From assembly GCA_963754945.1 (NCBI GenBank), contig CAVWIG010000024.1, forward strand, positions 59,040 to 123,039: a stretch of 64,000 nt of DNA. Reading direction: 5' to 3'. The notes beneath the pieces are model-generated. The model saw only the letters and a list, made by a program, of their open reading frames with translations, ran no database searches and was not told the DNA's origin. Source of the DNA: Methanotrichaceae archaeon (lineage in GTDB: Archaea; Halobacteriota; Methanosarcinia; Methanotrichales; Methanotrichaceae). Shown one piece after another: positions 7,202 to 57,582 of this stretch (its first letter is position 1; the number at the start of each line of letters is the position of its first letter). The position numbers and the translations under genes are program-made.

Positions 7202-7203
7202 AC

Positions 7204-37050: not shown

Positions 37051-37620
37051 TCACCGACAGCCACACGTTCTGCCCTTCATGCTGTACTCATCGGCAAACT
37101 CGTTGTTCACATCCACTACTTCCTCGTTGAACTCCAACAGGTGATCCGGGACAGGTCCCAGGGCGTCGGCCTTGTTTTGGGTGTCCACAAGAGCACCGTG
37201 CGGCACGAACTTTCCATCCGTCAGCTTGACCCCAATAACAATCGCTCCGTGGCCAACGAAGCATTTCTTACCTAAGTCGGAGGCATGAACTACCGAATTA
37301 AAGCCGACGAAGCTTTCGTCTCCGATCTTCAAAGGTCCGTGGATGATAGCTCCATGGGCAATAGAGATGCGCTTCCCAAGCTCGATTGAGCTGCCCTTGA
37401 GCCCATGGAACACGGCACAGTCCTGGATATTGCATTCATCGCCAATGATAATAGGCGTAGCTTCGTCAGCCCTCAGGGATGCCCCTGGCGCAATATAGAC
37501 CTGGCTGCCTATGCGGACATCTCCAATAACTGTAGCAGCATCGTCCACATAAGCTGTAGCCGAGACCGTAGGCATCCGCTCTTCACTGTTCCAGGAAGTC
37601 TTTGGATTGCTCTTCAGCAT
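37051..37620 (-). CDS. Gamma-class carbonic anhydrase, no signal peptide
   Basis: Hexapeptide repeats; LRADE, NIQD..FH, IAHGAIIHGP metal-binding His residues; EVVDVNNEFADEY helix. Confidence 0.88.
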   Translation of the reverse strand: MLKSNPKTSWNSEERMPTVSATAYVDDAATVIGDVRIGSQVYIAPGASLRADEATPIIIGDECNIQDCAVFHGLKGSSIELGKRISIAHGAIIHGPLKIGDESFVGFNSVVHASDLGKKCFVGHGAIVIGVKLTDGKFVPHGALVDTQNKADALGPVPDHLLEFNEEVVDVNNEFADEYSMKGRTCGCR

Positions 37621-38032
37621 ATTTATCACCTTCTTGTGGATTTGACATTCTGATAAAAAGAGATTACCATCAACGATGATTTTCATCTTCTGGTTCTATC
37701 TCGATCAATGGCGATGCATGGAGCGTCTTTCTCATAGGAGACAATCCAAAATCAATGCCTACCTGTGCACTATTCGGAGAAATAGAGAAAACAGTCTAGC
37801 GATATGACCAATATTATAATGTATAATTGGTATATTTCGCCGCTAATCTTAAATAGGTAGGGAATAAAACTTAGGACACGTTACCAAATTATCATAAGGG
37901 GTAATGTAAGGGAACAAGGAGGGATTTGAGGAGTTTGGACCTATATACACTTATAGATAGTATTGAGATTTATATTAATTACGCGTATTGAATAGGAACA
38001 AAGTAATATTGCTTTGAGGAAGGGTTAAACTT

Positions 38033-39322
38033 ATGGCTGAAGAAATGAAGGAATCAGGAAGTAGATGGATTCTTGTCATCGATGGCCTGATAATGATGCT
38101 CTGTCTGGGCGCTATCTATGCGTACAGCTTGTTCTCTGTGGCTTTAAAGGCGTATTATACTGATCCGGTATCTAAAGGCGGTCTAGGATTGACGGTTTCT
38201 GCTCTTGATATGCAGCTGCCGTTCATAGTGTTTCTGGCGTTCTTTGCCATTACCATGCCCCTGATGGGCAAGTACATAGAGAAGCATGGGCCAAAGAAAG
38301 TATGTACCGTTGGAGGAGTTCTTGTCGGCCTGGGATGGTTCCTGGCATCGTTTGCATCATCCCCCCTGATGCTCGACGTACTCTATGGCGTAATAGGTGG
38401 CATTGGGGTAGGCGTGGCCTATAACTGTCCCATCACCGTCTCTGGAAGATGGTTCCCTGACCGGCGCGGCCTAGCTGTCGGGCTCACAGTGTTAGGATTT
38501 GGTTTCTCCTCGGCTTTGATTGGACCCATATCCTTGTACTTGAGAACCAGCTACGGAATATTAACCGCAATGAAGATCTTTGGAATAGCCTTTCTGATTA
38601 TAATCGTAGCGCTAGCCCAGCTACTGAAGTTTCCGCCCGCTGGATGGAAGCCTGCTGGCTGGATGCCTCCAGCACCGAAGCCCGGAGCTGCTGTTTCGTG
38701 TGACTTCATCAGGGCTCAAATGCTTAAATCCCCAAGCTGTTGGGGTCTATGGCTATGCTACGTCATAGGAGCTACGGCAGGACTCATGGCAATTGGAATT
38801 GCCGGACCTGTTGGGATAGAGGTAGCAAAGAATGCAGGCATTACGGGTGCTGCAGCTACTGCCCTGACAACTAGCCTTGTCATCCCATTTGCCATTGCCA
38901 ATGGTTTTGGAAGGCCGATCTTTGGGTCTCTGGTGGATAAGTTAGGTGCCAGGAATACAGCCATAGTGTCGTTCGTGCTGATCTTCATAGCCTCCATAAT
39001 GATGGGCGGATACATTGGATCGCCGTCAGTCACGATATACACCATAGCCTTCATACTGCTCTGGGGATGCCTGGGCGGGTGGCTGGCTATTGCTCCCTCC
39101 TGTACAGGGGCATACTTCGGGATGAAAGACTATGCCTGTAACTATGGGTTCATCTTCACGGCCTATGGCCTGGGTGCCATAATTGGAAACGTGATGTCCT
39201 CAAGGATCGTGGATATCACCGGCAGCTACTTCGGAGCGTTCCCAATTGTAGCGGTCATGTCCATACTCGGCATCATCATCGCCTTCGTGCTGCTGAAGCA
39301 TCCTGAGCCGCCCGCGGCTTAA
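38033..39322 (+). CDS. OFA-family (oxalate/formate antiporter-like) MFS transporter
   Basis: GAIYAYSLF, WFPDRRGLAVG, ANGFGRPIFG, NYGFIFTAYG. Confidence 0.85.
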   Translation: MAEEMKESGSRWILVIDGLIMMLCLGAIYAYSLFSVALKAYYTDPVSKGGLGLTVSALDMQLPFIVFLAFFAITMPLMGKYIEKHGPKKVCTVGGVLVGLGWFLASFASSPLMLDVLYGVIGGIGVGVAYNCPITVSGRWFPDRRGLAVGLTVLGFGFSSALIGPISLYLRTSYGILTAMKIFGIAFLIIIVALAQLLKFPPAGWKPAGWMPPAPKPGAAVSCDFIRAQMLKSPSCWGLWLCYVIGATAGLMAIGIAGPVGIEVAKNAGITGAAATALTTSLVIPFAIANGFGRPIFGSLVDKLGARNTAIVSFVLIFIASIMMGGYIGSPSVTIYTIAFILLWGCLGGWLAIAPSCTGAYFGMKDYACNYGFIFTAYGLGAIIGNVMSSRIVDITGSYFGAFPIVAVMSILGIIIAFVLLKHPEPPAA

Positions 39323-39354
39323 TTTATTTTTTATTTACTTTTTTATAACACTAG

Positions 39355-39565
39355 ATGTTTCTTTAAACCCACTATGGCCAATTTCGAAATCATTACATGC
39401 TAATAATAGTACTATCAATACTATGAATTCTCTTACAGCCTGGGTTTTTCAAGAAGCTCACAAGAAATAACGAAATCTGACGACAGGTTATTGAAGATAT
39501 CGGATCCAATCAAGTGGACGTCAATTCGTCAGATCCTCGAAGAAATGTACGACAATTAAGCGAGA
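39355..39565 (+). mobile_element. Degenerate IS5 left-end fragment
   Basis: MNSLTAW...IRQILEEMYDN* matches the N-terminus of the 9961 transposase (FRQILEEMYDNK); contains stops and a frameshift. Confidence 0.7.
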
Positions 39566-39638
39566 TTGGTATAATTCAATCAAACTTTATATATCTCTCT
39601 GCGTTTAGGAGCTATCGGCAGGACGACGAGATATAATT

Positions 39639-41402
39639 ATGATATCCAAAGTCAAGGACCTCTGTGACCTCGCGAGTGCTAGCTACACCCGAAAATGGGT
39701 TACCTTAAGCATACTGATAGGAATTGCCGCAGGTCTGGGCTCCATTATCTTCTACTGGTCTTTGACGACCGCTACTCATCTCCTGCTTGGGCTTGGAGCA
39801 GGATACGTTCCGCCCGCGTCCACCGGAGAGGGGGCTACCGTATTTACCGGTGTGGCCAGGCCCTGGGTTCTTCCCTTTCTCACGGCTGCAGGAGGACTGC
39901 TGAGCGGGATCATAGTCTTTCGTTTTGCACCGGAGGCTGAAGGGCATGGGACAGACGCTGTCATAAATGCATTTCACAATAAAGGAGGTGTCATTCGCCG
40001 CCGTGTTCCCTTGGTTAAAGCCGTAGCATCCGCCATCACCATAGGCTCCGGTGGCAGTGCCGGTAGAGAAGGACCCACCGCCCAAATCGCCGCAGGGACA
40101 GCCTCGGCCCTGGCGGACCTGTTCCATCTGTCTGAGTCAGACAGACGCATTGCCGTCGCTGCCGGGATCGGCGCCGGGATAGGCTCCATCTTCAAGGCAC
40201 CCCTGGGTGGTGCGATCCTTAGCATGGAGATTCTCTACCGCCGCGATTTCGAGTATGAAGCTCTCCTGCCATCCTTTATCGCATCCGTTGTGGGTTACAG
40301 CATCTTCGCTTCCTGGAGCGGATGGGCGCCGGTCTTCGGCAGCGGCATTGTCCCGCCGTTCAGCAGACCTTCTGAGCTTATCTCCTACGCTATCCTCGGC
40401 GTGGTCTGCGGGCTGGTCGGCATATTGTACGGGCGCAGCTTCTACTACCTTAGAGACTTTTTCAAGAGCGCCGGAATTCCCAACTGGATAAAGCCTGCTA
40501 TTGGAGGGCTAATGGTCGGATTAATAGGCGTCTTCCTGCCGCAGGTCCTGGGCACCAGCTACGGATGGTTACAGTTTGCCATCAACGGAGACTACATCGC
40601 ATTGCCTGTTACAGTCATGCTGGCAGTGGCGATCTTTAAGATCCTGACCACCGGGCTGACCATAGGGTCAGGGGGCAGCGGCGGCGTTTTTGCTCCAGGT
40701 TTGGTTATAGGCGGAATGACCGGCGGTGTCTTGTGGAATCTCCTTCACGGTTACCCAGCTATCACTCCCAGCTACCCCTCGGCCTTCGTCGTCGTGGGAA
40801 TGATGGCTCTCTTCGGGGGCATCGCCAAAGTCCCTCTGGCGGTGATCCTCATGGTGAGCGAGATGACCATGGATTACACCCTCTTGATCCCCAGTATGCT
40901 GGCCTGTTCCATAGCCTATTTCGTCACCGGAGACAATTACCTCTATGAGAAGCAGGTGAATGTTCGGGCAGAGTCGCCTGCCCATAGGCATGAGTACTCT
41001 GCTATGCTTCTCAAGGCGCTTAAAGTGAAAGAGGCTATGACAAAACGGGTGCCTATCATCAGCTCCCAATCGACGATAGATGAAGTGGCTAATCTTTTAA
41101 AAGAGTACGAGGTTCACGCCGTGCCGGTTGTCGATGAGGGCAGGCTCGTGGGGATTGTGGCCAAACTGGACGCGGTAAGAAGTATTTACCAGGATCGTCC
41201 TCGAGCATCGGTGAAGGAGATAATGAGCTCCAAGCTTGTAGTAACATACCCGGATGAATCTTTATTTGACGCGATGAATAAGATGATCATAAATCACATC
41301 AGCCAGCTTCCGGTTGTAGAGAGAAACGATCCCGATCAGCTCCTTGGATTGTTAGCTTTGGATGATGTGACCAGGATCCAATGCACAACAAATGCTAGCT
41401 GA
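39639..41402 (+). CDS. CLC-family chloride channel/antiporter with CBS domains
   Basis: GSAGREGP, FKAPLGG, GGVFAP, C-terminal CBS pair. Confidence 0.93.
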   Translation: MISKVKDLCDLASASYTRKWVTLSILIGIAAGLGSIIFYWSLTTATHLLLGLGAGYVPPASTGEGATVFTGVARPWVLPFLTAAGGLLSGIIVFRFAPEAEGHGTDAVINAFHNKGGVIRRRVPLVKAVASAITIGSGGSAGREGPTAQIAAGTASALADLFHLSESDRRIAVAAGIGAGIGSIFKAPLGGAILSMEILYRRDFEYEALLPSFIASVVGYSIFASWSGWAPVFGSGIVPPFSRPSELISYAILGVVCGLVGILYGRSFYYLRDFFKSAGIPNWIKPAIGGLMVGLIGVFLPQVLGTSYGWLQFAINGDYIALPVTVMLAVAIFKILTTGLTIGSGGSGGVFAPGLVIGGMTGGVLWNLLHGYPAITPSYPSAFVVVGMMALFGGIAKVPLAVILMVSEMTMDYTLLIPSMLACSIAYFVTGDNYLYEKQVNVRAESPAHRHEYSAMLLKALKVKEAMTKRVPIISSQSTIDEVANLLKEYEVHAVPVVDEGRLVGIVAKLDAVRSIYQDRPRASVKEIMSSKLVVTYPDESLFDAMNKMIINHISQLPVVERNDPDQLLGLLALDDVTRIQCTTNAS

Positions 41403-41444: not shown

Positions 41445-43931
41445 CTAAATTCCACCAACCTCTTTTCCGATAACCTCCGCTTCCCTCTCCAGTATCTCCA
41501 CCTCTCGCTCAAACCGCTTGAATAAGAAGACCTTGGCGAGATCCGTCAAAATGAAGGATATCATTGCGTAAACCCACACAAATAATGCAAGCCTCCAGCC
41601 TATCGGGGGTATGAGCAAGCCGTAGACTGCGATAATAGTCGCCACTGTCTGAGTGCCAAGGACCGCAGCAAGAAGTATATTGCTCGGCCTGCTGGACCAG
41701 AAATGGCCTTTCGTCCTGGTTATAAATATAAGAAAATGCCCGGCGACAGAGAGCTTGAGGTACATCATTGATTGCAGAACATCCCTGGTGAGGTGAAGGA
41801 TGTCCACTCCTATGAAAAATAACGTAAAAGATGCTACGGTGCCAACAATGCCCAGAAATGTCGCCATGCCTAGCACGGTCCTCATATCCCAGCGACTAGG
41901 CTTGAACGCATACTCTGCTCGATCGTAGGCTATGGACATGATTGCAAAATCGTTAAGCAAAGCCAGCAATACTATCATTATGGCAGTCACTGGATAAAAG
42001 TTGAATATGATTATGGACAGAGTGATGAAGAGAAGTACTCTTATGGTCTCAGCTATCCGATAAATGGCGTAGCTGTTCATTCGCCGGAATATCTTGCGGC
42101 TCTCCTTGATGGTGTCTATGATGACGGAAAGCCCAGGTCTAGTTAGAACAATTGCTGCAGCAGACTTGGCGGCGTCTGTTGCTCCTGAGACTGCAATTCC
42201 GGCGTCTGCTTTCTTCAAGGCAGGGGCATCGTTTACACCGTCACCCGTCATGCCGACAATGTGTCCTCTGGCCTGAAGCAGCTCTACTATCTTGAATTTG
42301 TGCTCCGGAAATACTTGGGCAAAACCGTCTGCCTTTTCGATGATATCCGTGGCCTCTTTGTCTGGTTTGTCGATGAAGTCGGATGCGGGACCGATATTGG
42401 TTCCTAGACCCACCATTCGAGCGATCTCTTTGGCTATGGCTACGTGGTCGCCGGTTACCATTTTTATGCGGACGCCCAGTGATTGAGCAGTCTTGATCGT
42501 CTCAGCGGAGTCTTCTCTGGGCGGATCTTGCAGAGCAATAAGTCCCACATAGCGCCAGGCTCCTTTGGAGTCAGTGCTGGCAACGCCAAGAGCCCTGTAG
42601 CCCTTCGAAGCGAAATTTTCTACGTCTCGGTCAACTGAGGAGCCCACGATGCTATTTGCTGTTAATGAGAGTATGGCCTGAGGTGCACCTTTGGCTGTCT
42701 TGAAACTGCCTTGAGGACCCTCTATTTCAGCTTCAGTTCTTTTGGAAACGGGATCGAAGGGTTTGAACTTGCCCAATTTGCATCTGCCAGGTTCAACCTG
42801 CTCTTCTTTGCACTTCTTTATGATGGCGATATCTATGAGGTCGCCGTTCTCCTCTCGGGATGCCAGAGCGCCAAACAGCAACACATCCTTCTCGGTGAAT
42901 CCCTCGAAAGGCACTACCTCTGCCACCGTAATGGCATTCTGAGTTATGGTGCCGGTCTTATCTGAGCAGAGAACATCAACGCCTGCCATCTCCTCGATGG
43001 CTGCCAGCCTGCTCACTATAGCCTCCTTCTTGGCCAGTTCAATCGCGCCCACTGCCATTGTCACGGACAGGACAGCAGGAAGGGCGGCCGGTATGGCGGC
43101 TACTACTAGAACTAGGGCGAATTGTAAAGTCTGCAGGAAGCCCTCATGTCTCAGAGTGGCTACGATGAAAATCAGTGTCACCAGGACCAAGGCAAGAATG
43201 ATCAGATAGTCTCCGATCTTGACTACAGCTTTCTGAAAGTGGCTCTGGGTCTTGGCCAATTCCACTAGCTTGGCAGTGCGGCCGAAGTAAGTATTCATCC
43301 CCGTAGCAAAGACCAGGGCTGTCATCTCTCCCTGACGAACTATTGATCCGGAGAATGCAACCTCTGAGACACTTTTCTCCACAGGCAGCGATTCACCTGT
43401 CAGGGCGGATTCGTCTACCTGGAGGAAATCGCCCTCAATAAGCTTGATATCTGCTGGAACGATCTCACCCAATCGGATTCTAACAAGATCACCGGGTACA
43501 AGTCCTCCGGAGGGGAGGCCTTTCCATTGTCCATCTCTCTGGACCCTGGCCATAGGTGCAAGCCTTTTCTTCAAAAGTTCAATGGCATTGTCGGCTTTAT
43601 GCTCCTGCCAGAAGCCAACCACGCAGTTCATGAGAAGAAGCAAGAAGATGATGGCAAAGTCGTCCCAGCGATTTAGTATTGCGGAAAGAATTGCTGCAGC
43701 CTCAATCATCCAGGGAATGGTTCCCCAGAAATAGCCCAGGAATTTGATTAATGGATTGATTTTCTTCTCTAAAATTTCATTTGGGCCGTATTGCCGGAAT
43801 CTAGCTTTTGCCTCTGAAGTAGAGAGACCGCTCTCGCTCGATGAGAGTCTATTCATCAAATCAGCTACAGATGCCTCCCGAGCTTCATCGGCACCGATGA
43901 TAGAATTTATGTCATACACCTCGATCAACAT
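41445..43931 (-). CDS. Plasma-membrane proton-efflux P-type ATPase (P3A)
   Basis: TGES, IPAALPAV, CSDKTGT, GDGVNDAP, LLNDF (M6 Asp), YAIYRI. Confidence 0.9.
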   Translation of the reverse strand: MLIEVYDINSIIGADEAREASVADLMNRLSSSESGLSTSEAKARFRQYGPNEILEKKINPLIKFLGYFWGTIPWMIEAAAILSAILNRWDDFAIIFLLLLMNCVVGFWQEHKADNAIELLKKRLAPMARVQRDGQWKGLPSGGLVPGDLVRIRLGEIVPADIKLIEGDFLQVDESALTGESLPVEKSVSEVAFSGSIVRQGEMTALVFATGMNTYFGRTAKLVELAKTQSHFQKAVVKIGDYLIILALVLVTLIFIVATLRHEGFLQTLQFALVLVVAAIPAALPAVLSVTMAVGAIELAKKEAIVSRLAAIEEMAGVDVLCSDKTGTITQNAITVAEVVPFEGFTEKDVLLFGALASREENGDLIDIAIIKKCKEEQVEPGRCKLGKFKPFDPVSKRTEAEIEGPQGSFKTAKGAPQAILSLTANSIVGSSVDRDVENFASKGYRALGVASTDSKGAWRYVGLIALQDPPREDSAETIKTAQSLGVRIKMVTGDHVAIAKEIARMVGLGTNIGPASDFIDKPDKEATDIIEKADGFAQVFPEHKFKIVELLQARGHIVGMTGDGVNDAPALKKADAGIAVSGATDAAKSAAAIVLTRPGLSVIIDTIKESRKIFRRMNSYAIYRIAETIRVLLFITLSIIIFNFYPVTAIMIVLLALLNDFAIMSIAYDRAEYAFKPSRWDMRTVLGMATFLGIVGTVASFTLFFIGVDILHLTRDVLQSMMYLKLSVAGHFLIFITRTKGHFWSSRPSNILLAAVLGTQTVATIIAVYGLLIPPIGWRLALFVWVYAMISFILTDLAKVFLFKRFEREVEILEREAEVIGKEVGGI

Positions 43932-44069
43932 ATAGATTTATTTCCAAGTGATATTGAACTTTCGGTGCTCAAATCAAAGCTGGTTAGTTAATCGAATTAG
44001 TGAACTGACCTTGCGATAGCAATAAGTAGTTTAGAATCCCATAAAATGTTCAGAGTCAGAGGAATACCA

Positions 44070-44426
44070 ATGATCGAAAAATTAGCTGAAAGCTCGGGAA
44101 ATGTCGTTGGCTATAAAGCAGTTGGAGTCATAACGGCTTCCGACTACCTGAAGTTAGAGCCTGAAGTCAGAGATTTGGTAGAAAAGGAAGGAAACATATG
44201 TATGTTGATTGATCTGACCGATTTCGAATGGGAAAAATTGGAAACCTGGTTACAGGATCTGGAATTTGGATATGAGTTTCATAAAAAGATCCAAAAACTG
44301 GCAATAGTCGGCAATAGGACATGGGAGAAGTGGATATCACACCTGGCCAGACCCTTCTATGCTCGTAACGTAAAATTCTTCCACACTGACAATATCGACA
44401 AGGCCTGGGCCTGGCTTCGGGAGTGA
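44070..44426 (+). CDS. SpoIIAA-like (STAS/SEC14) protein
   Basis: G.ITASDY, KLAIVG..W, AWAWL. Confidence 0.8.
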   Translation: MIEKLAESSGNVVGYKAVGVITASDYLKLEPEVRDLVEKEGNICMLIDLTDFEWEKLETWLQDLEFGYEFHKKIQKLAIVGNRTWEKWISHLARPFYARNVKFFHTDNIDKAWAWLRE

Positions 44427-44853: not shown

Positions 44854-46041
44854 ATGAAGACAACAGTCTATTTGGCAATAATCCTTGCAGCCATGATGCT
44901 TCTCTCTATGGCATCATTTGCACAGAAAATGCAAGGAGTAGCGGTTGAATCGGATAGCGTGGCGCCCGCACCGCCATCGATTGGTGCAGATGTACCTTTA
45001 ACTTACTTTGGTCCTGCTCCTTCAACAGTTCAACGTGAACTCGTTGGTCCTTATCAACTGTTGAAGTCCGGCATGATCGATCTGAATGCTGGTACTATCA
45101 CGATGCCGCTGTACCAGGGACAGATGAAGGATGGCAAAAAGGTATGGTACATCCTGACAGACACGGACGATAAAGGAAATGCAGATGCACTCGGCTTGAA
45201 CTATGCCGCGAAGCTGACGTATGCGGCAGTGGGCAAAGCGGTCAGAACTGCAACCCTGGAGAAAAATGCCACCTTAACTTTCGATAGCGGAACAGTGGAC
45301 TTCAAGCCAGTGCACAACTTGGTGCCTGGAGCTGCGCCTAACGCATTCCCACCAAAGAACGCCACTCCTGGGTCAGTTGGTGATGCTGACTACAGCCCCC
45401 TGGTTAAGATAGTCAACGCAGGCGGGCATATCTACAACGCTCCGATGATAGCTTTTAACGTTGATGCCAAACAGCTCATGTTCCCGAACGGCAAGCCTGA
45501 CTATAGCATAGTGGAAGACAAGGTTGTAGCTATCGATCCCAAGAACATGACGGTCACAATGAAGCTCACTCAGGGGTTCAGCTTTGCAAAGCCCGTGCTC
45601 TACCTGAGCACTGAAGCCAGCGACCCATTGGCCGCCACCCTGGAAGGCGCAACCTATACCCCGGCGCTCAGAGATATACCCATAGGACGTGACGACAGCG
45701 CCTTCAGTCCGATCGAGAGGATCTTCGTCTTCATCAATGGTCCCACAGGAAAGGAAAACCCCCAACGCCAAGGACTGAATAGTGCGATAATGGACGGTGA
45801 GTCACCTCTTAACGTCTTAGGAGGCATTCCATCAGTGGCAACTGATTACAGCCCGTTATGGGATATGAACCTGGGCATGTGGACAAATGAGTCTATTAAT
45901 AAAGGCTACAGGTCCAGGATGATTGAGGAGTTCCAGATCCTGGGAATGGCCCAGAAAGGATGGATCACTGGGCCTGCGGGAGGACCTTTTGGTTCGGTGG
46001 GCATAGTCGTAAACTGCCCGATTGCATACCGTTTCCTGTGA
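44854..46041 (+). CDS. Secreted hypothetical protein
   Basis: Sec signal peptide; two YSPL motifs; terminal VNCP; single Cys. Confidence 0.8.
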   Translation: MKTTVYLAIILAAMMLLSMASFAQKMQGVAVESDSVAPAPPSIGADVPLTYFGPAPSTVQRELVGPYQLLKSGMIDLNAGTITMPLYQGQMKDGKKVWYILTDTDDKGNADALGLNYAAKLTYAAVGKAVRTATLEKNATLTFDSGTVDFKPVHNLVPGAAPNAFPPKNATPGSVGDADYSPLVKIVNAGGHIYNAPMIAFNVDAKQLMFPNGKPDYSIVEDKVVAIDPKNMTVTMKLTQGFSFAKPVLYLSTEASDPLAATLEGATYTPALRDIPIGRDDSAFSPIERIFVFINGPTGKENPQRQGLNSAIMDGESPLNVLGGIPSVATDYSPLWDMNLGMWTNESINKGYRSRMIEEFQILGMAQKGWITGPAGGPFGSVGIVVNCPIAYRFL

Positions 46042-46095
46042 ATAACAGGAAACAAACCTTTTTCATTGAACTTACTTTGTAAAGGGGTTGTTGAA

Positions 46096-46860
46096 ATGAT
46101 TGTTGAAAGCAAAAAATTAAGCGGGATAATGTTATTTCTGGCTGTGTTGGTAGCATTAGCTCTGCCAGCATGCACGGCGCAAATGAACACAACTGGAACA
46201 CCTCAGGTCAAGATCATAGAGCCGAAAGAGGGCGCTCAGATCCCAGCAGGAAACATCACCGTTATGGCAAATGTCACGAACTTTAATCTGGTTAATAAGC
46301 TCGGCCAAGCTAATGCCGCGGGCGAGGGCCACCTACATTACTACATTGATGTTGCAGTTCCAAAGACCCCCGGCAAGCCTGCAGTTACAGCGATAGGCAC
46401 CTTCGCACCAGTCGCCAATACTACCTGGACATGGCCGAACATTAAGCCCGGCAAACATAACTTCTCGATCCAGCTTGCGAACAACGACCATACTCCCGTG
46501 CTTCCGTTGGTGTATAATACAGTTAACGTCACAGTAGCGGCTCCGACCTTAAAAGCGATGAGTGTAAAGAGCGTGACAATCAGTCTTGTCGTTAAGAATA
46601 TGTCTTTCAGCCCAACCGAAATCAAGGTTCCTGCTGGAGCCAATGTCACCATCAACTTTGATAACCAGGATCAGTTCATACCTCATAACTTTGCTGTCTA
46701 TACTGATTCCTCTGCCAGAACAGCTATCTACCAGGGGAAGCCCATGACGGGACCTGCCAAGGTAAACTATACATTTACTGCGCCAACTAAAGCGGGAACC
46801 TATTTCTTCCGATGTGATGTCCACCCCACGATTATGACAGGTCAGTTTATAGTTCAGTGA
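46096..46860 (+). CDS. Secreted two-domain cupredoxin (type-1 Cu site) with a His-containing N-domain
   Basis: Signal peptide; GEGHLHYY..NNDH; PHNF...CDVH...M. Confidence 0.85.
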   Translation: MIVESKKLSGIMLFLAVLVALALPACTAQMNTTGTPQVKIIEPKEGAQIPAGNITVMANVTNFNLVNKLGQANAAGEGHLHYYIDVAVPKTPGKPAVTAIGTFAPVANTTWTWPNIKPGKHNFSIQLANNDHTPVLPLVYNTVNVTVAAPTLKAMSVKSVTISLVVKNMSFSPTEIKVPAGANVTINFDNQDQFIPHNFAVYTDSSARTAIYQGKPMTGPAKVNYTFTAPTKAGTYFFRCDVHPTIMTGQFIVQ

Positions 46861-48357: not shown

Positions 48358-48378
48358 CTCTTCCTCACTCCATTTTGT

Positions 48379-49893
48379 CTACTTTTTGCCCAGAACATTT
48401 TTGGACATATCCAGAAGCATCTCACGATCCTTGGGCCTGAGCTTTTCGGCCGATGAAATCCGCTGGTACAATTCAGTCATTTGCTCTCGAAGCGCCTTTC
48501 CGATCCTTTTTTTTGCAGATGCAATTTCGTCCAGAGGGATATCATCAAGGACGCCCGCGGTTGCCGCCAGGAGAACAGCGATCTGCTCTGGGGCGGGTAC
48601 CGGCTCATACTGCTGCTGTTTCAGCACCTCGCGGATTCGCCGTCCGTGCTCCAGTGTCTTTCGTGTATCCTCATCCATCTTGGTGCCGAATCTTGCAAAA
48701 TCCTCTAGCTCCTCGAATTGAGAATAAGAAAGGCGCAGATCACCCACAACATCCCGGTATGCAGGAAGTTGGCTCTTTCCTCCTACTCGCGAGACCGACT
48801 TGCCCACGTCGATGGCGGGCAAGACTCCCTCCTCATAAAGATCTGGAGAAATATAGATCTGGCCATCGGTTATGGAAATGAGGTTGGTTGGTATATAAGC
48901 GGATATGTCCTGAGCTTCTGTTTCAATTATGGGCAAAGCTGTTAGGGAACCGCCTTTTATTAGATGAGTGGATCTCTCAAGGAGACGTGAGTGAATATAA
49001 AATATGTCCCCCGGAAAGGCTTCTCTTCCAGGTGGCCGCCGCATCAGCAGGGATATCTCGCGGTACGTACGTGCATGGCGGGTCAGATCGTCGTAAACGA
49101 TCAGGACATCTCGACCCATTTCCATGAAATACTCTGCCATAGTTGTGGCTGCGTAAGGAGCAATGAAGTTCAAACCAGGCGTGTCTTCGCCTGTGGCCAC
49201 TACTACAATGCAGTTCTTCATGGCATCGTACTTGTGCAAATCCGCGATCACTCTGGCTACTGCTGACCGCTGCTGTCCAATGGCACAATAGACGCTTATG
49301 ATTCCTTTATCTCTTTGATTTATTATTGTGTCAATGGCTATGGCAGTCTTGCCTGCTTGGCGATCTCCTAGGATCAATTCCCGCTGGCCGCGACCAACAG
49401 GAATCATTGCATCAACTGCAAGAATTCCCGTCTGAAGCGGAACATTCACAGGAGCGCGGTCCATAATAGCCGGAGCAACACGTTCTATTGGTCGCTGCTC
49501 TCTGGTTTTGACTGGTCCGCCTTCGTCCAGCGGCCTCCCGGTCGGGCCCACAACTCTTCCCAGCAGCTCTTCTCCCACGGGAACGTCCATAACCCTCTCG
49601 GTTCGACGAACCTCCTGCCCGGCTTTGAGCTCTTCGCTTTTATCGAGCAAGATGACGGAAACTTCTTCAGGGTCCAGGTTGAAGGCTATCCCCATCTTGT
49701 CGCCAGAGAACCTGACCAGCTCCTCAGACTTCACATGAGCCTGGCCTTTGATACGTACGATGTCGTTTCCCACGAAGGTTATTGTGCCGATCTCCTCAAA
49801 ACGCATTTCGGGTTGATGACTTTCAAGGGTACGACTAACTACGGAAAAAGCATCAATGAAAGCTTCCTGGAGTTCTTTATTCTCTTTATCCAT
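48379..49893 (-). CDS. atpA: N-ATPase alpha subunit
   Basis: [36 protein letters not shown]. Confidence 0.96.
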
Positions 49894-50683
49894 TCCTTTT
49901 TTCCTCAGAAGGCAGGAGCTTCTCGGAGGCTCTTTGCAAAGACGCTAGGGACAGATCCGCTCTCAAAGTATCCAGATAGCTGGCGATGCTCCAGCCAATT
50001 CTTGTATCTGACGTACTCATCTCAATGCCGGCTATCAACTCCGGAGAAGGTTCGAACTTGATTTTGAGGTCTTTGCCTGCCAGATTTCGCATTGTTTCCA
50101 GGATAGTCTGTCGAGCCTCATCGGGAATTTCAAAGGTGCTTCTGACGGTGATAGGCCCAGGGGTTTTAAAAAACTCTTTGATTTCCTCTTTTCCAGTCTC
50201 TCTCATTTCCCGCAGACGCCGGATGAAGGTGTCGATTATCTGGGCCTCCAGTTTTTCATCGGCCAGATCCTGAAGGGCCCGGCGAGTGATAGCATAAACC
50301 TCTTCTCCAGTGCGCAATCTCAGGTCTGTGAGGATTGACTCTTTCTGTCGCTCAATGGAAGCGTACCAATCGGCAGTGCTTGCTTCAACTTCCGAACGCG
50401 CTTTTTCGGTTAAATCGGTCTTCAAGGCTCGGACCTCCTCGGCGACCTTTGCGAGCATCTCCTGGCGCTTGTCCTGCAATTCCTGTTTCATCCGGCGAAA
50501 AGATTCGGCCTCCTGCTCAGCCTCTTTTCGTTTTTGCTCCACATCTTTCAATTTAGATACCATTTTTTGCTCTCGTTCGTCCATCGCCGTGATGACAGGC
50601 CTGTAGAGGAAGTGTCTCAACAGGAAGACTAGGATAAGAAAGTTGATGATTTGGGCAATTATGGTGAAATAGTCGATCTGCAC
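49886..50683 (-). CDS. atpF: N-ATPase b subunit (long, with delta-like C-terminus)
   Basis: [18 protein letters not shown], coiled coil, LIAGIE. Confidence 0.92.
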
Positions 50684-50692
50684 GCAATCCTC

Positions 50693-50971
50693 CTATTTTG
50701 CCACGTAGCTCCAGAAGGGATTGGCGAAGATCAGGATTATGGATATCACAAAGCAGTAGATAGCTATGGACTCTACCATTGCCAGGCCAACGAACAGAGT
50801 TCGGGTTATGTTGTTGGCCTCATCGGGCTGCTGAGCAATAGCACTCAAAGCTCTGGACAGCGCCCAGCCTTCACCTATCGCCGGACCAATCGATCCTATA
50901 GCCATGGTTATCCCGGCCATGATTATGGAGACCATGCCGATGGTGTCCACGCTTGCCATATCTACAGCCAC
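50693..50971 (-). CDS. atpE: N-ATPase c subunit
   Basis: PAIGEG, QQPD loop, AMVESIAIY; SD AAGGAGGT. Confidence 0.95.
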   Translation of the reverse strand: MAVDMASVDTIGMVSIIMAGITMAIGSIGPAIGEGWALSRALSAIAQQPDEANNITRTLFVGLAMVESIAIYCFVISIILIFANPFWSYVAK

Positions 50972-50972
50972 A

Positions 50973-51674
50973 TCAAGTACCTCCTTTAGAATCTTTAACC
51001 ATTTTTCTATCATTCGAACTGGCCGAAACAATGTAAACGGTAGCCAGAACCGCAAATATGTAGGCCTGTACCTGGCCGATCAGCAGCCCGAGCAACTCCA
51101 GCAGCACGGGCAGAAACAAGGGCGCAATGGTGAGCAAGATGGCGATCAACATGGACTCGCTCATCATATTCCCGAACAGCCTGACAGCCAGGGCTATTGT
51201 GCGCGAAAACTCTCCGATGATGTGGAAAGGCAGCATGAGGATCGATGGTTCTGCATAATGCTTGAGATAACCGGCAACGCCTGACTGGGCAATTCCATAG
51301 ATGGGAACTGCGAAGAAGACGCATATCGCCAGCGCTGCCGTAGTGGAAAGAGAACTGGTCGGCGTACGGTAACCAGGTACGATATCGAGCAAATTTGCAA
51401 CAGAAATGAAGAGAAATAGAGTGCCCGAAAAGGGAAGATAGCGATCAGGACTCATCTGGGCAATTCCTCGTATTTGGCTATCCATATAGCCGATTAATGT
51501 TTCAAACAGGTTCTGCCAGTGAGAGATTGGCGGTTCGACCGACAGACGACGCGTTGTAAACCAGGCCAAAAAAACCAGCAATGCCATTACGGCCCAGGTA
51601 AAAACTATAGTTTCATTGATGGAAACAAATCCCCATTTCCAGAAGACGATTTCATCGGGGCTTAACTCCACCAT
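50973..51674 (-). CDS. atpB: N-ATPase a subunit
   Basis: PTSSLSTT, LAVRLFGNM, QAYIF. Confidence 0.95.
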   Translation of the reverse strand: MVELSPDEIVFWKWGFVSINETIVFTWAVMALLVFLAWFTTRRLSVEPPISHWQNLFETLIGYMDSQIRGIAQMSPDRYLPFSGTLFLFISVANLLDIVPGYRTPTSSLSTTAALAICVFFAVPIYGIAQSGVAGYLKHYAEPSILMLPFHIIGEFSRTIALAVRLFGNMMSESMLIAILLTIAPLFLPVLLELLGLLIGQVQAYIFAVLATVYIVSASSNDRKMVKDSKGGT

Positions 51675-51675
51675 T

Positions 51676-51963
51676 TCAATCCGACTCCTTATAGATATAA
51701 TGGCCCAGGCGGTGAGTCAGCGCCAGCTTCGTCAATGTGAAGCCAGCCAGGCTGGAGACAAGCCCCACCCAACCGTTGCTGGCAACGAGATAAAAGCAGA
51801 AAATGCACACCGCAGACCGTCCCAGAAAACTGCTCACGGTCAAAAGTGCAGGTTGTCGAGAGCGAGAGAGATGCAGCAGTGTCAGCCAGAGTCCGCCGAA
51901 GTAGAAGACGCCCAGGACAATGCCCGATATCATGGCGAGGGCCAAGACGAGAATTTCATTCAT
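51676..51963 (-). CDS. atpR: N-ATPase AtpR subunit
   Basis: YFGGLWLT, SFLGR; position between atpQ and atpB. Confidence 0.85.
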   Translation of the reverse strand: MNEILVLALAMISGIVLGVFYFGGLWLTLLHLSRSRQPALLTVSSFLGRSAVCIFCFYLVASNGWVGLVSSLAGFTLTKLALTHRLGHYIYKESD

Positions 51964-52275
51964 CCCTTTGATACCTCTCGATATTTTTTTGCTCTTTTTT
52001 AACCCAGTACCAGGCATTGGCACAACCGACAGCCAGTCCGATGGATAAAAATGTAAGCGTCCAAGAGATGTGCCCTGGATACCTTATGTCAAGCCAGACT
52101 CCGATTGCAACGCCGATCAGAGTGGGAATGACCACCGACCAACCAATCATGCCCATCATTCCCAGTCCAAACCAAACGCCTTTGGCTCTATTACGTCTGG
52201 CCTTCATTTTACGCTCTTCTCTGGAGCCTATCTTTTCGGTAAATTCGCCGTCTTTTTCGTACTCGGCTTCGACCA

Positions 52276-52276
<1 letters not shown>
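51956..52276 (-). CDS. atpQ: N-ATPase AtpQ (AtpZ/AtpI-like) subunit
   Basis: GLGMMGMIGWSVVIPT, GCANAWYW. Confidence 0.85.
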
Positions 52277-54092
<1,816 letters not shown>

Positions 54093-55005: not shown

Positions 55006-55172
55006 AACAATTGCTCACCTAATCGTACAGTCCGATAAATTAATTATAAATATTATTACTTATTAGTGGATGATTAACAAGCCTGAAGAAGTTTTTGCTT
55101 GTTTGGCTATTCTGCATCCATTAAGTTGCTCTTCGGGAAGAATTATAAGATCCGAACGAGAATACAATTTCT

Positions 55173-55928: not shown

Positions 55929-56055
55929 ATAGAAGGGAATACGACTGGGGGAAGTCGTCATTCTTTATTCTCTAATATTTATAATCCAGGTAATATAAAC
56001 TTCAACCTTAACTTAACTCCAGTTCTGTAACAAAATGACCCAAAAATTAGTTCAT

Positions 56056-57582
56056 TTATTCTGCGGATATTATCATATGCCGCTGAGCGTCTTGAATATG
56101 AGTTTCTAGATTTGATGATTTAGATCTATAAATGGTATTGTAGGAACAGAAGGGAACAATCCTTCCATCCGGCAAGGCGTAGTGAACTCCACATCTCTGC
56201 AACCTCTCCAGATCTATATTGTACAGATCCTGGAAGAACATAGTTCCGATAAAGAGAGTGTTGTTATGAAACTCGGTCAGAGCTTCCCGGGTTCCGTTCT
56301 TGATAATGCTTAGAAACAACCTGGTAAAGGCTAGGCCATCGGGAGTCTTCGACTCGTCTATGAACTTCGGCAGCTCCTTCAAGATCATGCCCTTCATCCA
56401 GAGCCTGCTCAGCCATGATCCATCGAAGTTCTTAACTTCCTCCTTGATCTTCTCCAGTAATCCCTCGACATCAACAAACCTCGTAATGGGGATAAGGCGG
56501 CCATTTAAGCTGTATAAGTAAGTGGCCGCACCGCAGCAAGGATGGACGGTCATGGTCGGTTGAGGAGTGCCGGTCTCAGCGGCAATTAGGCCGGATATGG
56601 GAACAACGAAAGGAACTGGATAGAAATCATCTCTAGTTATCTCGTTATCTGTCTGGTCTTCTACCAGGGTGATTAGATCGGATATGGTGAGCCTCTTCTT
56701 TTCCCTCTCCTGCTGATCGATCCTGCCCACAAACGACACTGGCTGGAAGTTAACGCCCTTCACTACATCGAGGTTCGTGGAGGCTAACCTGATTATGTCG
56801 CCTACCTGACCATCGTTAACCCCCTTCGCCAGGGTTGGAACAAGGACTAGGCTCATCTGCCCGGCTTCTCTGAGGTTCTTTATGGCTCGAAGCTTGATTT
56901 GCAGTAAGTCGCTTCCTCGCATCGTTTTGTACGGTTCTGGAGTAACGCCGTCGAACTGCATGTAGACGGTGCTGAGTCCACTTTTCACCAAGCTTTTGCA
57001 GAGGTCGAGACTGGCAGCGAGCTTTACACCGTTGGTAGCTACTTGAATCTGGGCGAAGCCCATTTCTTTCGCCATTGAGATGATCTCGGGCAGGTCATCC
57101 CTGATTGTAGGTTCGCCTCCGGATAACTGGACCGCCGGGCATGGAACTGGCCTCTGATCCCTCAGTGTCTGCATCATGGCCCTGATCTGGTCCATCGTGA
57201 GGTCTTCTGCATTTTGTCCTGCATCAGCGAAGCAGGTTGGGCATGATAGATTGCATCTATTGGTAACATCGATATTCGCCAGGATGGTGCTTGTCCTGTG
57301 ATTCTCGCACAGACCGCAGTTGAAAGGACAGTTCCCGGAAGACGCGACTGGTTTTTCTACGCCTGAACCAATGGCCCAGAAACGCATGAACTTTCTATAG
57401 AGCGTTACATCAGACCAGTACAAGTCTTTGAAATCGCCGTGGTCTGGACATCGTTTCTCTAGCTTAACTGCCTTGCCTTCTTGAAAAATATGGGCGTCGA
57501 CGACCTTCAGGCAAACGGGGCAGAGAGAAGATATAGTTTTGTCGATGATGCTAGGAGGAGTTATGATCTCATTCAAACGCAT
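56056..57582 (-). CDS. tes: Tetraether lipid synthase (Tes-type radical SAM), copy 2
   Basis: CPVC..CPDHG, CPFNCGLC, CNLSCPTC, MFFQDLYN, RCGVHYALPDGRIVPFC; collinear with 19241..20734. Confidence 0.83.
   Translation of the reverse strand: MRLNEIITPPSIIDKTISSLCPVCLKVVDAHIFQEGKAVKLEKRCPDHGDFKDLYWSDVTLYRKFMRFWAIGSGVEKPVASSGNCPFNCGLCENHRTSTILANIDVTNRCNLSCPTCFADAGQNAEDLTMDQIRAMMQTLRDQRPVPCPAVQLSGGEPTIRDDLPEIISMAKEMGFAQIQVATNGVKLAASLDLCKSLVKSGLSTVYMQFDGVTPEPYKTMRGSDLLQIKLRAIKNLREAGQMSLVLVPTLAKGVNDGQVGDIIRLASTNLDVVKGVNFQPVSFVGRIDQQEREKKRLTISDLITLVEDQTDNEITRDDFYPVPFVVPISGLIAAETGTPQPTMTVHPCCGAATYLYSLNGRLIPITRFVDVEGLLEKIKEEVKNFDGSWLSRLWMKGMILKELPKFIDESKTPDGLAFTRLFLSIIKNGTREALTEFHNNTLFIGTMFFQDLYNIDLERLQRCGVHYALPDGRIVPFCSYNTIYRSKSSNLETHIQDAQRHMIISAE

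Follow-up and report, generated by a model that had tools for sequence, protein, structure and literature searches.

The 20-kb stretch at positions 37,051 to 57,582 of the window, a 64,000-nucleotide piece of a Methanotrichaceae metagenome-assembled genome (MAG), is on balance best read as a mosaic of separately inherited units that converged at a variable locus of the family, and not as a single system. The mosaic itself is real, and its ion-balance modules at this variable locus are related by theme; all gene types in the stretch are of kinds already known. The presence and placement of each gene named in the initial annotation were borne out by open reading frames and by Pfam and NCBIfam profile matches, and the label "methanogen" was confirmed by mcrA on contig C18. 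The idea of a co-located toolkit inherited as one island was not. Since the strand changes six times across the stretch, the units are transcribed separately. The contiguity of the modules is known from a single MAG contig of a genome rich in insertion sequences (IS).

The 20 kb do not constitute a co-inherited island, because the divergent gene pair at their left end belongs to the family-wide core. The CamH-like gamma carbonic anhydrase (37051..37686, minus strand; probable start Met23, about 37620) occurs in 72 of the 81 family genomes and the MFS carrier of the SfMCT/OFA type (38033..39322, plus strand) in 71, the two lying at most 2 kb apart in about 57 of 81 (hand count). The anhydrase aligns from residue 23 with Cam structures of M. 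thermophila (1qrg, 1thj and others; E 1e-38) and retains His81/117/122, Arg59, Asp61, Glu62, Asn73 and Gln75, with Lys at the Glu84 position. The carrier scores 361 bits with NF049980 (cut-off 320) and has the L-lactate transporter SfMCT as its best solved relative (6g9x, E 1e-47; OxlT, E 1e-27). The divergent arrangement had therefore been described correctly, but the supposed OFA-type carboxylate transporter is nearer to the lactate/monocarboxylate type of SfMCT than to OxlT. Cam is described together with the acetate/H+ symporter AceP in Methanosarcina acetivorans (bioRxiv 10.1101/2024.04.24.590269), and a Cam/AceP cluster is noted in Methanocrinis (PMC10598746). The present pair resembles the M. 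acetivorans arrangement in that an acetate-using methanogen encodes a gamma carbonic anhydrase next to a carboxylate carrier; however, its carrier is an MCT-like MFS protein, AceP of this genome is encoded on contig C28, and the anhydrase, unlike Cam, is CamH-like and shows no acidic loop, Glu84 or visible signal peptide. The pair is core housekeeping and most likely helps an obligate user of acetate to handle carboxylates and bicarbonate/protons.

In the family, the backbone of the locus runs from asd through the divergent anhydrase and MCT-like MFS genes to a slot A, followed by a purF/Lsm/PUA/.../HSP20 block and a slot B. Its left anchor, the aspartate-semialdehyde dehydrogenase gene asd (35887..36918, minus strand; PF01118 and PF02774), is 84-92% identical in G085, G091, G081, G092 and G044, where it likewise adjoins the anhydrase/MFS genes. 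Slot A of relatives holds nothing, a CLC gene alone, CLC-P3A-STAS or an "ESI-type" N-ATPase, and slot B an "EST-type" N-ATPase. The order is asd-CA-MFS-CLC-[8-gene purF block]-N-ATPase in G091, CLC-[block]-N-ATPase in G082 and G048, asd-CA-MFS-N-ATPase-purF block in G081 and G092, purF-(STAS)-P3A-CLC(-MFS-CA-asd) in G085 and three other MAGs, and asd..CLC-MFS-purF in G044. Ion transporters are the slot cargo in 14 of 15 loci examined, the exception being the empty slot A of G080 (MFS-[block]-N-ATPase). The window has the fullest loading of slot A, with both kinds of cargo as well as a Tes paralogue, DUF488, an FNR-like reductase and an IS at the end; the purF block of its genome is found on contig C38, to which it has presumably moved. 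The same-genus genome G002 lacks window positions 39350-43925 (IS remnant, CLC and P3A) at this site, the alignment breaking at 39349/39350; its MFS gene adjoins STAS, and Tes2-FNR-DUF488 runs to the contig end, where atpD would follow. No N-ATPase, P3A or window-type CLC was found in G001 of the same genus, which carries a P2-type ATPase, an LPG-synthase-like protein, a tyrosine integrase and a Prim-Pol at the site. At this locus relatives bear the modules singly. In G019 a distance of 1.4 Mb separates P3A from the N-ATPase, and in G005, G017, G082, G085 and G086 the two are on separate contigs.

Among the accessory modules (prevalence over 81 genomes: CLC-P3A-STAS 13-18, N-ATPase 28, accessory Tes 12), the plasma-membrane-type P3A ATPase (41445..43931, minus strand, convergent with CLC) occurs at ≥68% identity in 18 genomes. 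It exceeds the TIGR01647 cut-off clearly (1057 versus 615.5 bits) and, aligned to AHA2 (5ksd, residues 22-800), retains DKTGT and the equivalents of Asn106, Arg655 and Asp684, so that at the level of motifs it reads as the H+ exporter first annotated. The protein resembles AHA2 and Pma1 (5ksd, 7vh5, 1mhs) over almost its full length (E 1e-183 to 1e-192), but at 828 residues it lacks a C-terminal autoinhibitory domain and, unlike them, it has a small STAS neighbour. Relatives at 55-69% identity occur in many phyla of Bacteria and Archaea. The STAS protein (SpoIIAA-like; 44046..44426, plus strand, likely start 44070; PF11964, E 4.6e-23), encoded divergently from P3A, is a possible regulator; it adjoins P3A in 9 of 80 P3A loci, including one in a deltaproteobacterial MAG, and lies directly upstream of atpD in two metagenome N-ATPase loci.

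The adjoining CLC gene (39639..41402, plus strand; PF00654 and PF00571, two CBS domains) is found at ≥76% identity in 13 of 81 genomes. ClC-ec1 reportedly acts as an electrical shunt in the extreme acid resistance of E. coli (Iyer et al., 2002). Both proteins have the CLC fold, and the window protein keeps the gating Glu (GREGPT) as well as the central Tyr (Tyr445), but carries His for the central Ser (GHGTD in place of GSGIP), Ile for the inner proton Glu (E203 position) and C-terminal CBS domains. The CLC gene is present as annotated, whereas the case for a shunt is weakened, since Ser-cen and Glu-in, half of the four defining residues of the ClC-ec1 exchanger, are missing. GHGTD was found in 108 of the 120 best CLC homologues and marks a distinct, widespread and apparently unstudied subfamily.

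The N-ATPase was rightly called complete, since all seven "alternate F1F0" models score above cut-off and the operon has both AtpR and AtpQ. The operon atpDCQRBEFAG (47476..54050, minus strand; TIGR03305/03166/02230/03165/03306/03322/03321/03324/03323 above cut-offs) comprises, all on the same strand, atpD (52659-54050), atpC (52276-52662), atpQ (51956-52276), atpR (51676-52023), atpB(a) (50973-51674), atpE(c) (50693-51055; motif E...ESIxxY), atpF(b-delta) (49886-50683), atpA (48379-49893) and atpG (47476-48357). N-ATPases of the class Methanosarcinia have been described as laterally moving atpDCQRBEFAG operons in Methanosarcina (Dibrova et al., 2010, PMC2881411; ProAD, 2025, PMC11738941), and ProAD lists them in a few genomes of other Methanosarcinia genera, one Methanothrix_A among them. 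The Methanotrichaceae operon is of the same kind, but it occurs in 28 of 81 genomes and in two sub-lineages at different slots of one backbone (ESI in slot A, EST in slot B), a placement absent from the consulted parts of both sources. In Burkholderia pseudomallei, a 17-subunit N-type ring (ratio 5.7; E30, E61-T62-M63, Y66) was found experimentally to be H+-specific and was proposed to export protons at the expense of ATP under acid stress (Schulz et al., 2017, PMC5376962). The window operon is of the same type with AtpQ and AtpR, and its c subunit likewise has a second Glu on helix 1 and, on helix 2, the pattern Glu-(Ser/Thr)-hydrophobic-x-x-Tyr; it differs in its archaeal host and in ESI versus ETM, and Methanotrichaceae relatives with a full EST motif also occur. 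From this motif the N-ATPase reads as an H+ pump.

Further cargo lies between and beyond the pumps. The Tes2 gene (56056..57600, minus strand; NF045702 652 bits, cut-off 450) encodes a putative tetraether lipid synthase with a radical SAM domain and an N-terminal zinc ribbon, as in the enzyme Tes / GDGT-MAS that was reportedly described by Zeng et al. and Lloyd et al. in 2022. Unlike that enzyme, it is one of four paralogues, so that the "second Tes" of the initial annotation is indeed a Tes gene but not the second of two; it falls into an accessory clade (support 99; 12 of 81 genomes) set apart from the syntenic "core" copy. Besides STAS, the stretch contains a DUF7482 protein (44854..46041, plus strand; PF24298, E 1.5e-15), for which no counterpart near P3A or N-ATPase was found in relatives, and a cupredoxin/DUF4399 protein (46066..46860, plus strand; PF13473 and PF00127), whose only relative seen is encoded in G017, on the contig of the N-ATPase and about 20 kb upstream of atpD. 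A DUF488 gene (54640-55005) and an FNR-like flavin reductase gene (55173-55928), both on the plus strand and assigned by Pfam, form a pair that also lies between Tes2 and the contig end in G002; FNR homologues occur near STAS-P3A in two other MAGs. Of the two IS remnants proposed, the one at 39355 corresponds to a degenerate remnant (39384..39550; 171 nt aligning at about 70% identity with the 5' end of an IS of 1175 bp, which has five genome copies) that borders the CLC+P3A indel on the left. The other, at 57970..59028, appears to be an intact IS481-like element, bounded by inverted ends of 32 nt (57970-58001 and 58997-59028, 88% complementary), a transposase matching NF033577 below its cut-off (E 7e-43) plus an rve domain, and diverged copies on C53 and C13. 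Both elements lie at module borders.

An alternative is that selection keeps the modules together as a toolkit for stress from low pH or organic acids, with P3A and an H+-type N-ATPase as pumps, CLC as shunt and tetraether lipids cutting proton leak. We consider this possible but doubtful. In the raw counts the modules occur together far more often than chance would give, with odds ratios between 6 and 17 in four of six module pairs over 81 genomes: 5.9 for N-ATPase with P3A (12/16/6/47), 16.5 with CLC (11/17/2/51), 7.9 with accessory Tes (9/19/3/50) and 9.3 for P3A with CLC. In independent contrasts the second trait changed in the same direction four to five times versus zero to one in the opposite, but these contrasts, being too few, are non-significant (p about 0.06 for P3A, 0.125 for CLC and 0.375 for Tes). 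On the mcrA tree of 71 genomes, at least 17 changes are required for N-ATPase, 16 for P3A and eight each for CLC and accessory Tes. Block inheritance is absent: neither N-ATPase nor Tes was found at any of 80 P3A loci, nor CLC, P3A or Tes at any of 43 metagenome N-ATPase loci. The core pair stands outside any island, the CLC protein departs from the acid-resistance exchanger, and relatives with P3A and CLC include MAGs pointing to bioreactor bins (PtaU1), which we take to be a non-acidic source. In favour of the toolkit are the H+-type motifs of both pumps (for the N-ATPase by comparison with the B. pseudomallei ring, PMC5376962), the repeated loading of one backbone with these genes and the slot of G001, which also bears a P-type pump and a lipid-modifying protein. 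Moreover, accessory Tes is present in 7 of 13 genomes with ESI-type N-ATPase versus one of eight with the EST type, and in four genomes, of differing sub-clades and with differing intervening genes, it is found upstream of atpD at a distance of 1-11 kb. STAS homologues stand beside both pump types, CLC-P3A-STAS is found on a single strand in a deltaproteobacterial MAG, the company of P3A elsewhere is stress-like (APC amino-acid permeases in 12 of 80 loci, tandem Usp proteins in 8 of 80), and pieces at least 99% alike were seen in one peat run (17/165) and one soil run (26/61).

It seems unlikely that the locus instead serves sodium, salt or general ion balance, with the N-ATPase expelling Na+ and CLC handling Cl-. 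N-ATPases are defined as mostly Na+ exporters, a full ESTxxY motif is present in 8 of 21 family c subunits read, and where Thr is missing, the second Glu of helix 1 might serve to complete a Na+ site (PMC2881411); but under the ProAD rule, by which any missing ligand means H+ (PMC11738941), the window c subunit is of the H+ type because it lacks the Thr ligand. The B. pseudomallei ring of like pattern is H+-specific (PMC5376962), and family and residues alike mark the neighbouring P3A as a proton pump. A very improbable alternative is that the N-ATPase works as an ATP synthase whose high ion-to-ATP ratio would suit the very little energy that acetate splitting yields. The assembly showed no A subunit of an A-type ATP synthase, TIGR01043 matching only the N-ATPase alpha and beta subunits, and a ring as large as that of B. 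pseudomallei would fit such a role; yet the assembly is 87.7% complete, A-type subunits are present in both same-genus genomes and 39 of 40 other genomes searched, and N-ATPases are described as always second copies (PMC2881411). We give equally little weight to an assembly artefact, a false join of repeats in a MAG rich in IS. One 1.2-kb IS is present in more than 45 identical copies and a 0.8-kb element in about 20, dispersed repeats lie in the intergenic stretches 39384-39550 and 46900-47275, and the public contigs matching the stretch, all too short, bridge none of the module junctions. However, a mis-join at the module borders is poorly grounded because the repeats there are short and only 70-83% alike; G002 independently has the MFS-STAS adjacency and the Tes2-FNR-DUF488 run to its contig end, and slot A is loaded with these genes in independent assemblies.

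Within the mosaic that we favour, families and motifs suggest a likely working of the parts. The P3A pump would spend ATP on H+ expulsion, the N-ATPase would likewise use ATP for export, probably of H+, the His-type CLC next to P3A could offset the voltage built up by the pump through an anion current or exchange, and the extra Tes might supply membrane-spanning lipids that reduce ion leak. The co-occurrence, the same-direction contrasts, the recurrence of ion transporters as slot cargo, the position of Tes near atpD and the presence of STAS with both pumps speak against this mosaic and favour selection keeping these functions together, as the toolkit reading has it. We infer that the modules have ion and pH balance as their common theme and are gained and lost independently in Methanotrichaceae, and a role in acid tolerance common to them is plausible.

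The stretch at 37-59 kb of the window, for which an acid- or pH-homeostasis island had been proposed, is best accounted for as a mosaic of separate modules at a variable locus beside a core anhydrase/carrier pair, an account that we consider rather probable. All genes named for the proposed island were recovered there with ORFs and family profile scans, and the label "methanogen" holds, since mcrA is present in the source assembly G000 (2.97 Mb, 54 contigs, 87.7% complete). A gamma carbonic anhydrase (37051-37686, minus strand) is divergent from an SfMCT-like MFS carrier (38033-39322). Further genes encode a CLC protein with two CBS domains (39639-41402), a P3A H+-ATPase convergent with it (41445-43931), a small STAS protein divergent from the P3A (PF11964; 44046-44426), a DUF7482 protein and a cupredoxin (44854-46860), an N-ATPase (47476-54050, minus strand), a DUF488 protein and an FNR-like reductase (54640-55928), the tetraether lipid synthase copy Tes2 (56056-57600) and an IS481-like element (57970-59028). 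With its six strand changes, the whole stretch was ruled out as one operon.

The modules were compared across 81 family genomes, comprising G000 and 80 drawn evenly. The carbonic anhydrase was found in 72 and the MFS carrier in 71 of them, less than 2 kb apart in about 57 (a hand count from coordinates; the exception is mainly genus g6), and this adjacency identifies the pair as family core and not, as initially assumed, as island members. The N-ATPase (beta subunit at least 76% identical), P3A (at least 68%) and the His-type CLC (at least 76%) were present in 28, 18 and 13 genomes, respectively. N-ATPase and P3A lie 1.4 Mb apart in G019 and on different contigs in G005, G017, G082, G085 and G086. 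On a 71-genome mcrA tree, which omits ten of the 81 genomes without usable mcrA, four of them with an N-ATPase, the minimum number of changes was 17 for the N-ATPase, 16 for P3A, and 8 each for CLC and the accessory Tes clade to which Tes2 belongs. None of 80 P3A loci across GTDB (flanks up to 10 kb) has an N-ATPase or Tes near the pump, and 8-9 of them hold a CLC of the window type. Searching metagenomes with the beta subunit gave 80 loci, of which AtpR/AtpQ identify 43 as N-ATPases; none of these 43 carries a CLC, Tes, window-type MFS, anhydrase or P3A. The block is thus not inherited together among relatives, and the idea of a co-inherited island has to be given up. The synteny sought in relatives was recovered in part: the modules are scattered and share no block, but 10 of 28 genomes have an N-ATPase no more than 15 kb from the MFS, CLC, P3A or accessory Tes (15 do not; contigs too short in 3). 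None of the public contigs aligned to the window, mostly 0.3-2 kb long, spans a module junction.

The core order in relatives is asd-anhydrase-MFS, a variable position (slot A), the purF block and a second variable position (slot B), the block being made up of purF, Lsm, PUA, DUF7847, a 94-aa ORF, an adenosine-kinase-like gene, an amidohydrolase and HSP20. Slot A is empty in G080 and is occupied by a CLC in G091, by CLC-P3A-(STAS) in G085 and three named MAGs (L062, L098, L108), and by an N-ATPase in G081 and G092. Slot B is occupied by an N-ATPase in G080, G091, G082 and G048, the last two of which have the CLC-block-N-ATPase order of G091, with MFS and anhydrase absent from the flank fetched. 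Slot-A N-ATPases are of the ESI type and slot-B N-ATPases of the EST type, named after the c-subunit motifs ESIxxY and ESTxxY. In G000, where the purF block is on contig C38, slot A contains CLC-P3A-STAS and an ESI N-ATPase together, then DUF488, FNR, Tes2 and the IS. Content varies even among close kin. In the same-genus genome G002, the STAS gene lies about 350 bp after the MFS gene and window 39350-43925 (IS remnant, CLC, P3A) is absent at the site, while another contig carries Tes2-(1.7 kb)-FNR-DUF488 up to the contig end. G001, of the same genus, has no N-ATPase, P3A or window-type CLC; its MFS gene is followed on the right by genes for an LPG-synthase-like protein, a P2-type cation ATPase, DUF1890, a tyrosine integrase and Prim-Pol (L327; G001:C219, 3442-11989), a cargo resembling an integrated element that brings a pump and a lipid gene of its own. 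Two P3A copies were seen in G002 (G002:C198 and G002:C67; 91% and 84% identical); each breaks off at residue 348, where its contig stops, as would be expected if two paralogues break the assembly.

Mobile-element marks at the module borders comprise one IS remnant and one intact IS; of the IS remnants initially reported, the element at 57970 turned out to be intact, with 32-nt inverted ends, while a remnant does lie at another border. No tRNA gene and no integrase were found within the stretch, and foreign base composition was not seen (GC 0.43-0.53 in 2-kb windows of the stretch vs 0.45-0.52 in contigs). A repeat common to the ends of C24, on which the window occupies 59040-123039, and C15, possibly closing the locus, was looked for and not found. 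The promoter/terminator scan (22 vs 18 expected and 13 vs 13.6 expected, respectively) relied on bacterial consensus in an archaeal host and is hence uninformative. The intergenic region 46900-47275, from the cupredoxin gene to atpG, contains dispersed repeats 77-83% like sites on C17, C15, C28, C39 and C21. The G000 genome has undergone massive IS expansion, with a 1.2-kb IS that is seen at window 5978-7202 and recurs at more than 45 further sites (>45 copies 100% identical), about 20 copies of a 0.8-kb element and five of a 1175-bp IS; transposases are also encoded at window 8754-9755 and 9961-10872. Low-GC DNA (0.38-0.42) at the right end, 61719-63223, encodes a DNA methylase fragment and a HEPN (RiboL-PSP / MAE_28990) protein, and is probably a defence or mobile region.

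In raw 2x2 counts over the 81 genomes, which ignore kinship, the N-ATPase co-occurs with P3A (odds ratio 5.9, p 0.002), CLC (16.5, p 8e-5) and accessory Tes (7.9, p 0.003), and CLC with P3A (9.3, p 9e-4) and accessory Tes (8.9, p 0.003); for P3A and accessory Tes the values are 3.1 and p 0.13. A tree-corrected test used 13 phylogenetically independent pairs differing in N-ATPase, in which P3A changed the same way in 4.9 and the other way in 0.2 (median p 0.06), CLC in 4.1 vs 0.0 (p 0.125) and Tes in 4.4 vs 1.1 (p 0.375). The contrasts are consistent in direction, but the numbers are too small.

Tes2 is predicted to be a tetraether lipid synthase by the equivalog model NF045702 (651.6 bits vs cut-off 450), with radical SAM (PF04055) and zinc ribbon (PF23545) domains. 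It had been described as a second Tes; G000 has four copies. These lie at window 19241-20734 and 56056-57600, C46:38322-39767 and C49:9804-11282, the highest count among the 81 genomes, and three stop codons interrupt the match at C49. Since only 33 of the 81 genomes have any Tes, tetraether synthesis looks variable in the family. The tree of the full set of 45 Tes hits places Tes2 in the accessory clade (support 99), along with two other copies from G000 and all those near an N-ATPase. The clade covers 12 genomes, 9 of them with an N-ATPase; compared with a 26-hit version, this tree adds one genome without N-ATPase to the clade. The distance from accessory Tes to atpD is 2 kb in G000, 1.2 kb in G089, 4.8 kb in G019 and 10.8 kb in G005, and the intervening genes vary by genome. 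The clade also holds a G086 copy located 10 kb from the P3A pair of that genome. Among genomes with an ESI-type ring, 7 of 13 have an accessory Tes, vs 1 of 8 among those with an EST-type ring. The syntenic core copy Tes1 is located beside a UbiA prenyltransferase and a GT2 glycosyltransferase (window 17604-20734); accessory copies in G019 and G005 are beside glycosyltransferases, that of G005 also beside an MMPL transporter.

N-ATPases are characterized, following Dibrova et al. (2010; PMC2881411), by the order atpD-C-Q-R-B-E-F-A-G, the presence of AtpR/AtpQ, a b-delta fusion and a second helix-1 Glu. The window operon has this order, all on the minus strand, and encodes AtpR (PF12966 and TIGR03165, 62.3 bits vs cut-off 55.5), AtpQ (PF09527 and TIGR02230, 130.7 vs 46.7) and a b subunit fused to part of delta (PF00430 and PF00213 in a single ORF). 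All "alternate F1F0" models scored above cut-off (beta 790.7/752, alpha 791.7/750.5, gamma 318.1/282.35, a 319.8/302.1, c 147.2/130.85, b 257.5/224.7, epsilon 138/100.1). The second Glu of the c subunit lies in the helix-1 sequence GPAIGEG, aligned with Gln/Glu32 in the rings of I. tartaricus and F. nucleatum; helix 2 has ESIxxY, with Ile in place of the Thr of the Na+ motif ESTxxY, so that the ligand set (Q/E)...ESTxxY of Na+-coupled rings is incomplete. ESIxxY was found in the window and 11 relatives, ESV in one and EST in 8 others, and in a beta-subunit tree the ESI- and EST-type enzymes are two clades of one family-level group, both occurring within genus g2. The ProAD rule treats any ring with a missing ligand as H+-specific (PMC11738941), and the N-type ring of B. 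pseudomallei (E30; E61-T62-M63; Y66), with the same pattern as the window c subunit, was found to be H+-specific (PMC5376962). Because of the absent Thr ligand under this rule and the like-patterned B. pseudomallei ring, the window N-ATPase is probably H+-coupled. Dibrova et al. (PMC2881411) consider that the second Glu might compensate for an absent ligand, and describe N-ATPases as invariably accompanying a primary rotary ATPase. The A-type ATP synthase A subunit was not found in the G000 assembly, in which the N-ATPase is the sole rotary ATPase seen; given the completeness of 87.7% and the presence of A-type subunits in G001 and G002, this is probably an assembly gap.

P3A pumps are known in methanogens. 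The window P3A (TIGR01647, 1057.3 bits vs cut-off 615.5) aligns to AHA2 (5ksd) over almost its whole length, keeping DKTGT and the positions of Asn106, Arg655 and Asp684, residues with known roles in AHA2, and is without the C-terminal regulatory domain. By family model and residues it is a predicted plasma-membrane-type H+-ATPase, expected to drive ATP-dependent H+ export. Relatives 55-69% identical (L064-L135) occur in Calditrichota, Thermodesulfobacteriota, Bacteroidota, Omnitrophota and CPR, and, among archaea, in Bathyarchaeia, Methanosarcinaceae and Asgard; this spread over many bacterial phyla and archaea suggests wide lateral transfer. The commonest P3A neighbours elsewhere are APC-type permeases (12/80 loci) and tandem Usp proteins (8/80). 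STAS adjoins P3A in 9 of the 80 loci, and in two metagenome N-ATPase loci a STAS homologue encoded on the atpD strand immediately precedes atpD. The two pumps, both driven by ATP but unrelated, may have STAS as a common partner. STAS sites of note are window 44046-44426, L283:3268-3636, L267:1503-1865 and L084:7992-8354. Complex prediction for STAS and P3A (alignments of 13 and 27 rows) gave no answer, with a score of 0.00 that speaks neither for nor against binding.

In a deltaproteobacterial MAG, CLC-P3A-STAS lie on one strand, and the CLC there also has GHGTD. This motif replaces GSGIP of ClC-ec1 (central Ser to His) in the window CLC, which shares with ClC-ec1 the gating Glu148 (GREGPT) and the central Tyr445 (EMTMDY) and has Ile at the column of the inner proton Glu203 (alignment to 1kpl, 1ots and relatives). 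GHGTD is found in 108 of the best 120 CLC homologues (P0002-P0121), at identities as low as 56% and in proteins named from Dehalococcoidia, among others; the GHGTD CLC with CBS domains is a widespread subfamily, and a literature search did not find GHGTD as a CLC motif. The initial annotation had invoked CLCs as electrical shunts in bacterial acid resistance; the analogy to the E. coli ClC shunt fails two of four residue tests, namely the central Ser and Glu203.

The anhydrase keeps the metal ligands His81/117/122 as well as Arg59, Asp61, Glu62, Asn73 and Gln75 (alignment to the 1qrg family, M. thermophila Cam); Lys stands at position 84 instead of Glu84, an acidic loop of about 19 residues is missing, and no hydrophobic leader was seen in the translation, judged by eye. 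Since it is without Glu84, acidic loop and leader, it is predicted to be CamH-like. Lacking leader and acidic loop, it was ruled out as a secreted Cam. The carrier had been called an OFA-type carboxylate transporter divergent from the anhydrase; the divergent arrangement stands, but the protein is closer to SfMCT (NF049980, 361.3 vs cut-off 320) than to OxlT (TIGR04259, 189.8, below the cut-off of 335), and a solved-structure search agrees. An oxalate:formate antiporter was ruled out by the latter score. An anhydrase beside an acetate carrier gene has already been noted in Methanotrichaceae (PMC10598746).

As for habitat, 18 public runs match 5-17% of sampled words of window 40500-50499, labelled as peat (11, one of them an RNA library), soil (4), freshwater/sediment (2) and permafrost (1). 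Contigs were aligned for four of them (X1, X2, X4, X12), and the other 14 carry no habitat evidence. Pieces at least 99% alike numbered 26 of 61 in the soil run, 10 of 58 in the freshwater-sediment run, 17 of 165 in the peat run and 7 of 72 in the peat RNA library; bins left uncovered in some runs, within 41.0-41.7 and 45.0-45.7 kb, carry no meaning. Contigs from the RNA library, 91-97% alike, match segments of the genes for the MFS, STAS, atpA, atpD and P3A, the last with one 1949-nt contig, a weak hint that these genes of relatives are transcribed in peat, as RNA libraries can contain DNA and contigs cannot rank expression.

The mosaic account would have, beside a core anhydrase/carrier pair, a variable locus at which cargo for ion transport arrives time and again; in the IS-rich genome G000, this locus would have acquired two otherwise separate cargos and a Tes paralogue, and the parts may have a theme in common, with H+ exported at the cost of ATP, a path for anions and a membrane made tighter. 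A dedicated acid toolkit would fit the comparative signals in so far as they lean to some functional link, but no block is inherited and the E. coli ClC shunt analogy breaks down at half of the residues tested, and we regard such a toolkit as unlikely. More doubtful still, though conceivable, is a co-selected accessory "proton defence" set of P3A, a hitherto unstudied GHGTD CLC of new selectivity or coupling, an H+-coupled ESI N-ATPase and accessory Tes tightening the membrane, repeatedly drawn to one locus beside the anhydrase/carboxylate-carrier pair, with STAS as common regulator of the two pumps, that would enable some energy-starved, acetate-using Methanotrichaceae lineages to live in acidic peat and soil.

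N-ATPases in Methanosarcinia, including a few genomes outside Methanosarcina, have been published (PMC2881411, PMC11738941), as has the proton-pump reading of an N-ATPase (PMC5376962). In a literature search of article texts, we found neither the backbone-and-slots picture with its ESI/EST split by slot, nor the cross-domain P3A/GHGTD-CLC/STAS module, nor the accessory Tes clade tracking the N-ATPase. A proton P-type ATPase of Methanothrix in peat was not found in the search either, and nothing on Methanosaeta P-type ATPases and acid was on topic among the literature matches listed. For Methanothrix with an N-ATPase, ProAD was the one match (PMC11738941).

The comparison separates core from accessory modules and shows insertion sites, and yields statements testable beyond one genome: that two N-ATPase sub-lineages differ at an ion-site residue, that an extra Tes clade tracks the N-ATPase, and that P3A travels with an atypical CLC and STAS across domains. 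Much of the methane from wetlands is made by relatives of Methanothrix, whose energy margin is very thin, so that ATP-spending ion pumps are costly and thus informative on the stresses faced. If the link to acidity fails, the region would be an ordinary variable locus; if it is true, the acid-tolerant acetoclastic methanogens of peat would be recognizable by these genes.
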